DNA of 64,000 nucleotides from a virus. Under the pieces are notes generated by a model. The model worked only from the letters and a program-made list of their open reading frames with translations. It was not told where the DNA came from and did no database searches. Location: the IMG/VR virus record IMGVR_UViG_3300037418_003060, positions 1 through 64,000 of that record, one strand, 5' to 3'. Within the stretch, counting starts at the first letter, position 1. Every line of letters starts with the position of its first letter. Shown in pieces: positions 24,082-26,888 of this stretch. Made by a program: the position numbers and the translations under genes.

Positions 24082-24393
24082 ATGACCATCTACACCTATC
24101 TCGACCTGTCGACGGCGCACCTGATGCAGCGCACGACAGAGCTGTTGGAGCAGGTCGCCGACCACAAGCGGCACGATTCCGCGGGCGGCCAGCCGGTCGG
24201 CTGGCCCAGTATGACCATCTCGGCTTACGAGTACGGGTTCTTCATCACCGTGCCCGAGCACGGCGAGGACCTGGACCAGGTGCCGGAGGACCTGCGCACC
24301 GTGCTCAAGTACGCCCAGAAGATCGGCGTGTGCCTGCTGCGTTTCGACCGGGACGCTGACGAGCAATCCGACCTGCCGAGGTACGTATGGTAG
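24082..24393 (+). CDS. DUF5983-like protein
   Basis: DLSTAHL...YEYGFF...PEDL..VL..A...FDRDA. Confidence 0.6.
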   Translation: MTIYTYLDLSTAHLMQRTTELLEQVADHKRHDSAGGQPVGWPSMTISAYEYGFFITVPEHGEDLDQVPEDLRTVLKYAQKIGVCLLRFDRDADEQSDLPRYVW

Positions 24394-26888
24394 ACAGCCA
24401 GAAAGGGGCGGCCACCACGAAGCAGCCATGTGGCGGGAGGATCGTGCACTACGTTGCCCGAGCAGAAAGACGTGTCAATCGCTACTGCGAGAAGTGCGAA
24501 CGCACATATCCGGACGGCTTTGAGGAACAGGCAACAACCTGTGTGTTACCTGCGGCCACCACGGAGCAGGCCGGGCTTGCCGTGTCGCTCGATGCGGTCC
24601 TGAACTGCTACTCACCCGACGACACAGTGACTGATTACCAAGACAAGATCCGTCAGCTCTACGCATCCACTGCGACCGACACGGCAAGCGCGAGCGAAGA
24701 ATTGCTGCCGTGTCCGTTCTGCGGATGCCACGGAATCAAATTCAGCACCGATCCTGTTCATTATCATAGACACACCATCAAGTGCGAAGACTGCCCCGGT
24801 CGAGCCGAGTTCTTCTCGTCTACGCGGGAGCAGGCCGTCGAAGCATGGAACCGCCGTACCGCCCCAGCACCGCAAGCGACCACCACCGAGCAGGCCGGGG
24901 CTGTCGGGTTCCCGCAGCGCATGAAGTATGGAGCGCCCCATAGCGCCGGATACGTGGACGGCTTCAATGCGTGCTTACAATTGTGCCAGCTCGCATCCCC
25001 TGCGGCCACCACGGCAAGCGCGAGCGGGGAGCAGGGCCGCAGGGCGTTGGAACTGGCGAATGCCGCATTGATTGCCGCCCAACCTCGCGATATCACGCCG
25101 AAGGGATGGGAACGCCACGAAGCCGCGATCAATGCTACGGCTTGCGCGCTGTACAAACCTACTGGCCGCGCCCCGGCAAGCGCGAGCTGGCTGGACGAAC
25201 TACCAGACAATCCAGACTCTATCGCCAACGTGCTGCCGAACCGCGCTCCAGCACCCAGCCGTGAGGCTGCTGTACCGCAGATCAAGACGTGGCAGGAGCG
25301 GAAAGCGGACTACGAAGGCTCGATGTGGCAGACGACCGAGCGTACGCACATGCTGGCCGAGATTGACGACCTGCGCGCCGCCCTCATCGCCACGGGAGCG
25401 AACCTACACACGGCAGTTCGAGAAGCGTGGCGGGCCAACGCGAAGGCTTCTGCCCTTGCTGGCCGTGAGGCTGCACCGCTGGATGAGCGGGCGCTGTTTG
25501 AGGCGCACATGCGCGAGCAAGGCGCAACCGACGATGACCTGAAAAAGCCTTACGGTCGGTATTTCTGGGAAAAGGCTGCCGACGCATGGAGCATTTGGCA
25601 GGCTCGCGCCGCACTCGCCCAACCGGCAGCGCCTGTAGTGGACGCCAAAGATCGCCGCATCCAGTTCCTCGAAGGACTACTCAAGGAGTACGGCCCGAAG
25701 TCGCTGCAATACGACATCGAGCACCCGAATGATGGGCTCAATGCGGCAGAGCCTGTAGACGCATTGGCGTCAGACAATGCGGCAACACCCGTTCCGTCTG
25801 CTGGGGTGTTGCCGCCGCTGCCGGAGCCTGTCGATGAAGTCGTCTTTTACGACTTCGGTAAATCGATTGACTCCAAGCCTGCTGCCAAAGATTACTTCAC
25901 GCCAGAGCAATACCGCCAAGGACAGCGCGAAGCCATCGCCGCCGCTCGCAGCGCACCAGTGGGGGCTGAATGGAAGAAGCCGATGCGCGACCTGGTGCGC
26001 GTGCTGCGTGGCGTCGAATGTGGTGACGACAGCCAATGGCAGTTCATCGCCAATGTGTGCGCGAATGCCGAAGAACTGCTCGCCGTCACATCACACAGAA
26101 GCGCACCAGTGAGTGTGATCCGTGAGGGCGCATGGAGTTGGGATGAGCGTGCTGCCGCCGCTGAAGCATTCATCAGGCCATACGCCGACCCTAAAGGTGA
26201 GTACCTTCAGGGCGACTATTCCGTGCAGCCCTTGGTGCGCCGGTTGGCAGCCGCGATTCTGGAATGGCAGCAGGACGTACTAAAGCACGTGCCAGAAGGA
26301 GCTTGTGGTATAGCCGCCCCAATTCCACCGGCTGCCGAGCAGAGCGCGGCAGAATTTAACGGTGAAGTATTAGGGCGGGTTACAACCTACCTTAGCCAAT
26401 TCTCCGAGTTCCAGCCGGTGGGTGACGATAGCCTCGAGCAGACTTTCCGCAATATTGTGGAGTGTATCGAACGCCTGCGCTCCACCTCATCGCACCCCGA
26501 GACAGCAGGAGGAAGTATCGCCGACTTGGCACGCAAGGCTGGATTCACTGTTGATCCTGATGGAACAATCGTTATCGAGCACCGCGAAGGCATCTGCACG
26601 GCCGAAGTCAAGGCGCTCATCGCCGCCGCTCGCAGCGCACCAGAGGTGCCGGAAGGGTGGCTCAAGGCGCTGCATGCCGCAGTCGGCGCGATCTACTTCG
26701 ACGACAACGGCGACTACAAAACTGCGCTGTGGGACGTTGTGCGAAACCTCGCCCCGGAACTGGTGGAAGAACTGGAAGCCAATCCGAGCGCAGTTTGGCA
26801 CCGGACCGATCCGACCAATCGCATCCTGTACCGGTGTCCTGCCGCCGCCCCATCGCACCCCGAGTCAACCAACAAGGAGCCCAAATGA
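24387..26888 (+). CDS. mosaic modular protein (Eaa/Ea22-type) containing a Lar-like restriction alleviation Zn ribbon
   Basis: ELLPCPFCG...CEDC...AVEAWNRR; short modules separated by repeated Ala/Thr/Pro linkers. Confidence 0.7.
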   Translation: MVDSQKGAATTKQPCGGRIVHYVARAERRVNRYCEKCERTYPDGFEEQATTCVLPAATTEQAGLAVSLDAVLNCYSPDDTVTDYQDKIRQLYASTATDTASASEELLPCPFCGCHGIKFSTDPVHYHRHTIKCEDCPGRAEFFSSTREQAVEAWNRRTAPAPQATTTEQAGAVGFPQRMKYGAPHSAGYVDGFNACLQLCQLASPAATTASASGEQGRRALELANAALIAAQPRDITPKGWERHEAAINATACALYKPTGRAPASASWLDELPDNPDSIANVLPNRAPAPSREAAVPQIKTWQERKADYEGSMWQTTERTHMLAEIDDLRAALIATGANLHTAVREAWRANAKASALAGREAAPLDERALFEAHMREQGATDDDLKKPYGRYFWEKAADAWSIWQARAALAQPAAPVVDAKDRRIQFLEGLLKEYGPKSLQYDIEHPNDGLNAAEPVDALASDNAATPVPSAGVLPPLPEPVDEVVFYDFGKSIDSKPAAKDYFTPEQYRQGQREAIAAARSAPVGAEWKKPMRDLVRVLRGVECGDDSQWQFIANVCANAEELLAVTSHRSAPVSVIREGAWSWDERAAAAEAFIRPYADPKGEYLQGDYSVQPLVRRLAAAILEWQQDVLKHVPEGACGIAAPIPPAAEQSAAEFNGEVLGRVTTYLSQFSEFQPVGDDSLEQTFRNIVECIERLRSTSSHPETAGGSIADLARKAGFTVDPDGTIVIEHREGICTAEVKALIAAARSAPEVPEGWLKALHAAVGAIYFDDNGDYKTALWDVVRNLAPELVEELEANPSAVWHRTDPTNRILYRCPAAAPSHPESTNKEPK
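24549..26864 (+). repeat. dispersed direct linker repeats within the mosaic gene
   Basis: 26-bp CATCGCCGCCGCTCGCAGCGCACCAG at 25934 and 26618; 35-bp near-repeat at 24662 and 24992; CCTGCGGCCACCACGG at 24549 and 24999; GCCGTGAGGCTGC at 25258 and 25462; CATCGCACCCCGAG at 26488 and 26851. Confidence 0.85.

Follow-up and report, generated by a model that had tools for sequence, protein, structure and literature searches.

A cassette-array gene of a soil phage: small unrelated modules between ordered, in-frame linkers conserved at the DNA level

What keeps short stretches of a phage gene nearly letter-identical in unrelated genomes, when most of the sequence between these stretches has been replaced? 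The question is raised by a gene on the plus strand of a soil-phage genome, at positions 24387-26888 of the stretch analyzed here (the window), which is the first 64 kb (64,000 nucleotides) of a virus record that is complete at 91,168 bp and has terminal repeats of 127 bp (IMG/VR record IMGVR_UViG_3300037418_003060, referred to as G000). The 833-amino-acid (aa) protein consists of ~16 small, unrelated modules joined by linkers rich in Ala, Pro, Thr, and Ser, which is the layout of many unrelated modules with recurring linkers that a first-pass annotation, made from the letters of the sequence, had described. The same annotation suggested that recombination at in-frame, DNA-conserved linkers adds, deletes, and swaps modules, which would make the gene an intragenic shuffling system. 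We consider it probable, from sequence comparison, that the linkers are in-frame patches of homology through which cassettes are exchanged, slot by slot, by homologous recombination between carriers.

The 833-aa protein has no colinear homologue among 1.8 billion representative proteins searched by a word-indexed and an exhaustive method. The former returned seven partial matches whose linker peptides and linker order agree with those of the window protein, although the sequence that separates the linkers does not; the latter returned 565 matches, each to one module, many of which are free-standing proteins of 56-130 aa (e.g., for the Lar and AIYFDD modules). The linker peptides were named N0 (DSSATSG), L1 (PQAATTEQAG), L2 (SPAATTASASG), L3 (RAPAPSREAAVPQ), L4a (AEIADLRAAL), L4b (AGREAAPLDER), L5 (RAALAQPAAPVVDG), L6 (ELPPLP), L7 (AAARSAPVG), and L8 (AAPSHPEPAGG). 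At least three linker types are found in 17 of the 219 proteins collected, always in the order N0-L1-L2-L3-L4a-L4b-L5-L6-L7-L8. With viral loci added, the family comprises 26 non-redundant members, one of which is out of order, and the progressive change of linker type along the gene noticed in the first-pass annotation is thus a feature of the family.

Four genomes of uncultured phages, which we examined in detail, contribute to these 26 members, as do other viral contigs, a prophage of Massilia agilis, and metagenome proteins. Peptide patterns blind to codon choice recovered the DNA of the viral genomes G001-G004 and of the prophage in the isolate M. agilis JCM 31605, Massilia being the sole named host among the carriers. 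When DNA was scanned for exact matches, an L2 24-mer appeared in 28 stretches, which come from ~26 viral contigs; for L5 and for L8, five stretches each were located. The L2 24-mer was present in only 2 of 401 sampled Burkholderiales genomes. A related-locus search with the window protein led to remote Lar loci only, an alignment of eight sequences was too divergent to yield a search pattern, and a metagenome scan returned a single locus, on a contig already known from the viral collection. Among GenBank phage records, the array gene had no match by blastn or by tblastn (50,697 phage records in the latter search).

Within the gene, the linkers recur as DNA. Every nucleotide and peptide repeat listed in the first-pass annotation was found in the sequence, including a 35-nt repeat at 24662/24992 (89% identical), 26 nt repeated exactly at 25934/26618, a 16-nt repeat at 24549/24999, GAGCAGGCCGGG at 24564/24888, a 13-nt repeat at 25258/25462, and a repeat at 26482/26845 that contains 14 exact nucleotides, along with the peptides TTEQAG (twice), TASAS (twice, plus PASAS), REAA (twice), RSAP (three times), and SHPE (twice). 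The 26 nt form the longest exact direct repeat of the open reading frame (ORF), whereas in 500 codon shuffles the corresponding length averaged 11.2 and never exceeded 15; repeated 13-mers number 26, against a mean of 0.11 in the same shuffles. Linker DNA is found nowhere else in the G000 genome. The ORF is also richer in A/T-ending codons than its surroundings, as reported earlier, with a GC content at third codon positions (GC3) of 0.66 versus 0.83 for the genome.

Between genomes, it is the linker DNA that is conserved. In the DNA-level comparisons, which cover ~33 contigs, an unbiased census of 18-mers over 33 contigs showed that the only parts of the window gene common to at least three contigs are nine linker segments. 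Linker codons are identical at 1015 of 1127 positions where a synonymous codon was available (0.90), versus 0.34 predicted by codon usage (codon-blind locus set), and in blastp alignments the codon identity at identical residues is 0.91 for linkers and 0.54 for modules. The kept codons include GCA, CCA, CCT, GTA, GCT, and CGT, which are rare in the carrier genomes, and GC-rich linker DNA is retained even in a locus of 51% GC. The codon shuffles and the linker codon identity together rule out chance or low-complexity codon bias as the source of the repeats. Linkers differ from their consensus at 5% of sites, distributed over codon positions 1, 2, and 3 as 19, 24, and 44, i.e., with a mild third-position excess (only 44 of 554 codons have a third position off consensus), and the changed codons are non-synonymous in 37 cases versus synonymous in 27. 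Because the third-position excess is weak and non-synonymous changes are at least as frequent, constraint, or recency, is at the level of nucleotides more than at that of the peptide. The array gene has a GC3 of 0.63-0.75 in every carrier, despite a genome GC3 that varies between 0.55 and 0.83, which suggests that carriers draw this gene from a common pool.

These figures bear directly on the explanation that the linkers are conserved for their peptide, either as protease cleavage sites that free the modules from a true polyprotein or as docking or tether sequences, with DNA identity as a side effect. The linkers are indeed part of the reading frame, and in their richness in Ala and Pro they resemble flexible tethers between domains; many modules exist as free-standing small proteins; and in G004, the array is divided into two genes at a linker. 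Yet a peptide function leaves unexplained why silent sites retain 90% codon identity when 34% is expected, and why non-synonymous changes are as common as synonymous ones. Moreover, the ten linker types have no cleavage motif in common, and the gene resides among small early plus-strand genes rather than beside a head protease. We regard this explanation as unlikely, and the processing into separate peptides that had been raised in the first-pass annotation finds no support. A role of the linkers as peptide tethers is likely, and it is compatible with exchange at the same sequences.

The layout of the window gene, against which the relatives are compared below, is as follows (all features on the plus strand).

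24387-26888, plus strand: cassette-array gene, 833 aa (from the ORF list)
24408-24425, plus strand: L1-like element (AATTKQ) near the N-terminus, third copy of the GCGGCCACCACG core (repeat family)
24426-24551, plus strand: M1, Cys-rich (..NRYCEKCERTY..), known only from the window allele and the metagenomic allele P0009
24552-24576, plus strand: L1 (AATTEQAG), with 18-mers common to up to seven viral contigs (18-mer census)
24577-24661, plus strand: M2 (SLDAVLNCYSPDDTVTDYQDKIRQLY), which stands behind other linkers in members P0004 and P0007
24662-24696, plus strand: L2-like linker (TATDTASAS), DNA 89% identical to L2 at 24992
24696-24860, plus strand: M3, Lar-type zinc ribbon (CPFCG...CEDC, aa 104-158; Pfam, PHROG)
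24870-24899, plus strand: second full copy of L1 (PQATTTEQAG)
24900-24988, plus strand: M4 (GFPQRMKYGAPHSAGYVDGFNACLQLCQL), 96.6% identical in DNA, together with both flanking linkers, in the unrelated G001
24989-25031, plus strand: L2 (QLASPAATTASASGE), a 43-nt segment common to up to 31 viral contigs
25032-25241, plus strand: M5 and M6, with a degenerate L2 copy (RAPASAS, 25154-25188) between them
25242-25286, plus strand: L3 (RAPAPSREAAVPQIK), with rare codons GCT, CCA, GCA, CGT, and GTA kept across phages
25287-25355, plus strand: M7 (TWQERKADYEGSMW...), DNA 82% identical in G001
25356-25493, plus strand: L4a (AEIDDLRAAL), the 25-aa insert M8, and L4b (AGREAAPLDER)
25494-25604, plus strand: M9 (ALFEAHMREQG...WSIWQA), the most widely shared cassette of the slot between L4b and L5
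25605-25643, plus strand: L5 (RAALAQPAAPVVD)
25644-25935, plus strand: M10, L6 (LPPLPEP, 25809-25829), and M11
25936-25963, plus strand: L7 (IAAARSAPVG); the 26-nt exact repeat from 25934 recurs at 26618
25964-26481, plus strand: M12, a short L7-like element (RSAPV, 26097-26111), M13, and M14
26482-26513, plus strand: L8-like linker (SSHPETAGG)
26514-26617, plus strand: M15 (IADLARKAGFTVDPDGTIVIEH...)
26618-26645, plus strand: second full copy of L7 (IAAARSAPE)
26646-26840, plus strand: M16 (ALHAAVGAIYFDDNGDY...), a four-helix domain
26841-26867, plus strand: L8 (AAAPSHPE), at the C-terminus

The clearest comparison is with G001, a genome that is also ~91 kb long with terminal repeats and comes from a different sample. 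The two phages are unrelated, having one weak protein match among 119 ORFs, and a whole-genome blastn comparison found three high-scoring segment pairs (HSPs), all within the array gene, and no other DNA in common. In window coordinates, these are:

24869-25014: 96.6% identity, from L1 into L2
25241-25412: 82% identity, from L3 to L4a
25356-25486: 98.5% identity, from L4a to L4b

Similarly, the protein encoded by P0009 is ~97% identical to the window protein over aa 1-215 (a comparison at the protein level), after which one unrelated 32-aa cassette replaces M5 and M6 between L2 and L3, a different cassette fills the slot between L3 and L4a, and insert M8 is missing between L4a and L4b. From L4b to L5, the two proteins are again identical, and P0009 ends just past L5. 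Thus, breakpoints fall at linkers.

Turnover between the linkers is nearly complete. The 26 members contain 113 inter-linker segments that fall into 85 clusters, with 15 clusters for 16 segments in the slot between L2 and L3 and 11 for 11 in that between L7 and L8. The window gene shares its L1-L2 cassette with P0003, P0009, and G001; its L2-L3 slot with P0002; L3-L4a with G001, P0002, and P0023; L4b-L5 with G002, G004b, P0006, and P0023; L5-L6 with P0015; and its Lar module with the Massilia prophage. For G001, there are yet other slots in common with P0002 and P0015. As judged from these sequences, cassette sharing is reticulate and not tree-like.

Could this pattern instead be neutral hitch-hiking, in which one scaffold gene spread very recently, its cassettes were replaced by illegitimate or microhomology events, and the linkers are simply the parts not yet replaced? 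Some of the data would fit: modules, too, are sometimes shared with little difference in DNA (96.6% and 98.5% identity in G001), the overall divergence of linkers is as low as recent ancestry predicts, and the GC3 of the array has not drifted toward that of the host genomes. However, ten linkers persist in 26 members while 85 cassette clusters turned over, and linkers retain 91% codon identity where homologous modules are down to 54%. The genes next to the array in G002, G003, and G004 encode proteins of just 29-41% identity, and replacements always restore both reading frame and slot order, which illegitimate events would not do. For these reasons, we judge hitch-hiking to be improbable.

Still less probable, in our estimate very much so, is another role of the linkers as nucleic acid, be it that rare codons between domains make translation pause, that the RNA is processed or structured at these sites, or that a regulator binds there. 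Such a role is suggested by the enrichment of linkers in A/T-ending codons that are rare for these genomes (A/T at third positions, 0.29 versus ~0.17), by the location of these rare codons at domain boundaries, and by the conserved C-terminal codons, which hold the ribosome-binding site and start of the next gene. Pausing, however, requires rare codons and not the same codon in 90% of cases; the folding of linker RNA does not surpass that of shuffled sequences (z from -1.25 to +1.7); and the linkers gave no credible Rfam match and have no DNA motif common to all ten. A CRISPR-like (clustered regularly interspaced short palindromic repeats) or tandem-repeat array is ruled out, because there are ten kinds of repeat here, all of them translated. 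Finally, the majority of the members were assembled from short reads of metagenomes or viromes, where more than one carrier may have been present, so that assemblers might have joined reads of different phages at shared linker repeats, but we reject such chimeras because the same architecture occurs in the isolate genome of M. agilis JCM 31605 and terminal repeats close G000, G001, G002, and G004; besides, a typical read is longer than a linker (45 bp or less), and the identical 833-aa protein was called on four contigs.

How, then, might exchange at the linkers operate? The gene product would be a beads-on-a-string early protein, its ~16 small domains folding independently on Ala/Pro/Thr/Ser-rich tethers, and the linkers N0 and L1-L8 would constitute an ordered vocabulary common to unrelated phages and prophages of soil bacteria, near letter-identical even at silent positions. 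If one cell comes to contain two carriers, either because both infect it or because a phage infects a lysogen, homologous recombination at a pair of linkers would replace the intervening cassette. Since every slot is bounded by linkers of its own, reading frame and register would both be preserved in this exchange. The conserved patches are 43, 33, 42, 24-28, and 26 nt long. The reported minimal efficient pairing segment (MEPS) is 31-34 bp for RecA and 23-27 bp for Red-beta-type recombinases (PMC3945230), and the near-identical patches of the linkers (24-43 bp) are at or above these values. We infer that homologous recombination is the mechanism and that linker identity is maintained because it permits exchange.

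Crossovers between similar linkers, in turn, would yield insertions, duplications, and deletions. The window allele is the longest member of the family and has three L1-like copies (starting at 24408, 24552, and 24870), three L2-like copies (24662, 24989, and 25154), three L7-like copies (25936, 26097, and 26618), and two L8-like copies (26482 and 26841). L1 and L2 have the core GCGGCCACCACG in common, and in G001, L2 runs directly into an L1-like ...ACGGAG. This common core, together with crossovers between similar linkers, would explain the unusual length of the window allele, whose extra linkers fit out-of-register crossovers that insert units of linker plus cassette. The duplicated linkers are best read as products of unequal crossing-over.

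Several points weigh against exchange by homologous recombination at the linkers. The evidence is comparative throughout, and the ~33 contigs are a small DNA sample. Near-identity of the linkers could stem in part from very recent spread rather than selection. RecT and ERF were looked for in G000, and neither was found; a clear RdgC homologue is encoded at 33295-34134 (plus strand, 194 bits), in agreement with the first-pass annotation, which had named RdgC, SbcCD, and SSB as possible agents of the recombination. An automated breakpoint test, limited to the commonest linkers, was weak, with 31% of HSP ends near a conserved segment versus 18% of random positions; the test is weak because other members use further linker types, and by eye, most of the remaining HSP ends lie in further Ala/Pro/Gln-rich junctions (LTQQAAPEAP, ARRAEPSVAA, ALAQQGAA). 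Functional annotation is available for just one of the ~16 modules. On the other side, colinear full-length homologues, breakpoints away from linkers, and linker identity due to codon bias, which the first-pass annotation had named as grounds for giving up its proposal, were each sought and not encountered. The absence of a colinear homologue, the breakpoints at linkers, the excess codon identity, and the reticulate sharing speak strongly for its suggestion that recombination at the linkers adds, deletes, and swaps modules. What should be amended is the idea of an intragenic shuffling system: the evidence points to exchange between the genomes of unrelated phages rather than to a dedicated intragenic machine.

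The annotated module is M3, which by family is a Lar-type restriction-alleviation zinc ribbon. Its match to Pfam PF14354 (Lar) spans the full profile and aa 104-158 and reaches 41.9 bits, where the cut-off is 28.6; the module scores 38.9 with TIGR03655, just under the cut-off of 39.6; and it matches the ‘Lar-like’ PHROG 599 with E = 2.7e-10. The four cysteines of the ribbon can be read from the translation (CPFC at aa 108-111 and CEDC at aa 133-136). Lar is the sole Pfam family in the window protein, ten relatives and ten module homologues are without any, NCBIfam adds nothing besides Lar for the window protein, and PHROGs gave no match for 13 separate modules. An AlphaFold prediction of the whole 833-aa protein made without an alignment was uninformative (predicted local distance difference test, pLDDT, of 41). 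Predicted alone, M16 is a confident four-helix unit (pLDDT 84) with a disordered tail toward the linker; it also occurs as free-standing proteins of 76-105 aa, and its model has no structural match in PDB or BFVD. One may speculate that the cassettes are small host-takeover or anti-defence domains expressed together early in infection; ‘anti-defence’ is a reasonable guess for an early, fast-turnover, Lar-containing gene, and nothing more.

Among known systems, the closest likeness is to the PeSL cassettes of T4-type phages, in which promoter-early/stem-loop (PeSL) motifs mediate modular shuffling (PMC2839356, PMC4122927). In both, small early units, for the most part of unknown nature, are bordered by short stretches of conserved DNA, which supply homology for insertion, deletion, and replacement. 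PeSLs lie in hyperplastic regions and consist of an intergenic promoter and terminator hairpin of one repeated type (PMC2839356, PMC4122927), whereas the array junctions are translated in frame inside one ORF, form no hairpin, and comprise ~ten types, 8-15 aa long, in fixed order. The gp38 adhesins of T-even phages are described (PMC3157838, citing Tetart 1996/1998) as having glycine-rich motifs between hypervariable segments. As in the array, conserved in-frame motifs alternate there with hypervariable segments, exchange occurs in or near the motifs, and the pool is population-wide; in gp38, a single domain has the motifs as its structural core, and the segments that vary are loops of a receptor-binding protein (PMC3157838). 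The array linkers, by contrast, are flexible tethers rich in Ala, Pro, Thr, and Ser, what varies between them is entire domains with no relation to one another, and the gene is an early one outside the tail module. Relaxed homologous recombination in lambdoid phages and the Botstein modular theory likewise involve mosaicism via short patches of identity, and the patch length of the array linkers matches the reported MEPS of 23-34 bp, but lambdoid patches are ordinary shared genes or fragments, and the array has a dedicated, ordered set of linkers in one reading frame (PMC3945230, PMC9836094). A literature search returned no description of this linker-cassette gene family, which differs from PeSL and gp38 in having in-frame, ordered junctions of multiple types between whole domains.

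Three other comparisons are less close. Polyvalent proteins (Iyer, Burroughs, Aravind 2017) also combine many disparate domains in variable architectures within one polypeptide of a mobile element, with a presumed role in host conflict (PMC5512222). They are large, have recognizable enzymatic or ArdC/MuF/Alt-type domains, and are packaging-linked and delivered with the DNA, and the word ‘linker’ is absent from the article that describes them (PMC5512222). The array gene is located in the early region (upstream of int in temperate relatives) and is not linked to packaging or transfer, and a Pfam search found none of the polyvalent signature domains (ArdC-N, MuF, Alt, relaxase, LPD) in the window protein or ten relatives. 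With both signature domains and packaging/transfer linkage missing, we rejected this assignment. Processed polyproteins of the T4 IP/Alt type have one short linker that is a head-protease site and are late or cargo genes, as opposed to ten linkers without a common motif in an early-region gene. The third case is Ea22 of phage λ, to which the first-pass annotation had likened the gene. Ea22 is a multi-domain protein, highly diverse in sequence, for which no linker system is described (PMC7093339, PMC10834534). Ea22-type families in Pfam, PHROGs, and NCBIfam gave no match to the window protein, and homology was rejected on sequence; what resembles Ea22 is the position of the gene in temperate relatives. 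In the Massilia agilis prophage and the viral contig L025, the array is followed on its own strand, after 1.2-1.8 kb, by a gene for a tyrosine integrase with an Arm DNA-binding domain (L022 10219-11400; L025 6889-7863), a place upstream of int that is like that of ea22 in λ (PMC7093339, PMC10834534).

In G000, the array gene is part of a tightly packed plus-strand run of small early genes. Its ATG overlaps the stop codon of the upstream gene, its TGA overlaps the ATG of the next (ATGA), and an AAGGAG ribosome-binding site for the latter lies inside the C-terminal codons of the 833-aa ORF. The neighbors include a MazG-like gene and a cytosine methyltransferase at 30177, as well as two widespread plus-strand genes of unassigned function, at 23607-24077 (phrog_1934, E = 3.5e-49) and 28395-29072 (phrog_2554, E = 8.6e-53). 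No integrase turned up in the stretch annotated around the array gene, the rest of the genome not having been searched for one.

Other carriers vary this arrangement. In G004 (locus L006; 40,117 bp, GC 0.51), the array is split at L3 into overlapping ORFs at 7061-7942 and 7914-8603, the second of which begins a few codons before L3 (MKSITEVDGRAPAPSREAAPLDER...); a linker position can therefore double as a gene boundary. The 52-kb phage G003 has two arrays, L008 (7857-8945) and L012 (minus strand, at a contig end), the second with a Lar-like match and linkers L5-L8, and the two could act as mutual donors. P0164, a 913-aa metagenome protein, has a C-5 cytosine methyltransferase domain (PF00145) fused to the large C-terminal module of member P0006, a module also widespread in proteins of Xanthomonas, Paraburkholderia, and Metapseudomonas.

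Three proteins (P0010, P0011, and P0013) share Lar or AIYFDD modules but use other recurring junction peptides (ASQPAQGVGLT.., AILARQTAP.., and QQTSAQVD..), which may be a second linker ‘dialect’ belonging to another phage community. A bolder reading, which we offer tentatively, is that the ordered linkers are a communal, position-coded ‘assembly standard’ whose in-frame DNA junctions stay identical because second-order selection favors exchangeability. Unrelated phages of one habitat might then rebuild a combinatorial early protein slot by slot from a shared pool of small effector domains, and parallel dialects, such as ASQPAQGVGLT, AILARQTAP, and QQTSAQVD in P0010 and P0011, might represent separate exchange communities.

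According to Botstein's modular theory, phages exchange modules at conserved junctions. To our knowledge, dedicated junction sequences are documented in only a few cases, namely PeSLs and tail-fibre motifs. The array locus is an unusually clean and dense case, with ~ten slot-specific, in-frame junctions within 1-2.5 kb that are kept at silent sites across phages sharing nothing else, while the cassettes between them have almost fully turned over. It makes testable the long-standing idea that short patches of homology persist because they permit exchange. It also marks a large reservoir of small phage domains, with 85 clusters in 26 genes, that are probably directed at the host, and it offers a natural template for combinatorial domain libraries.

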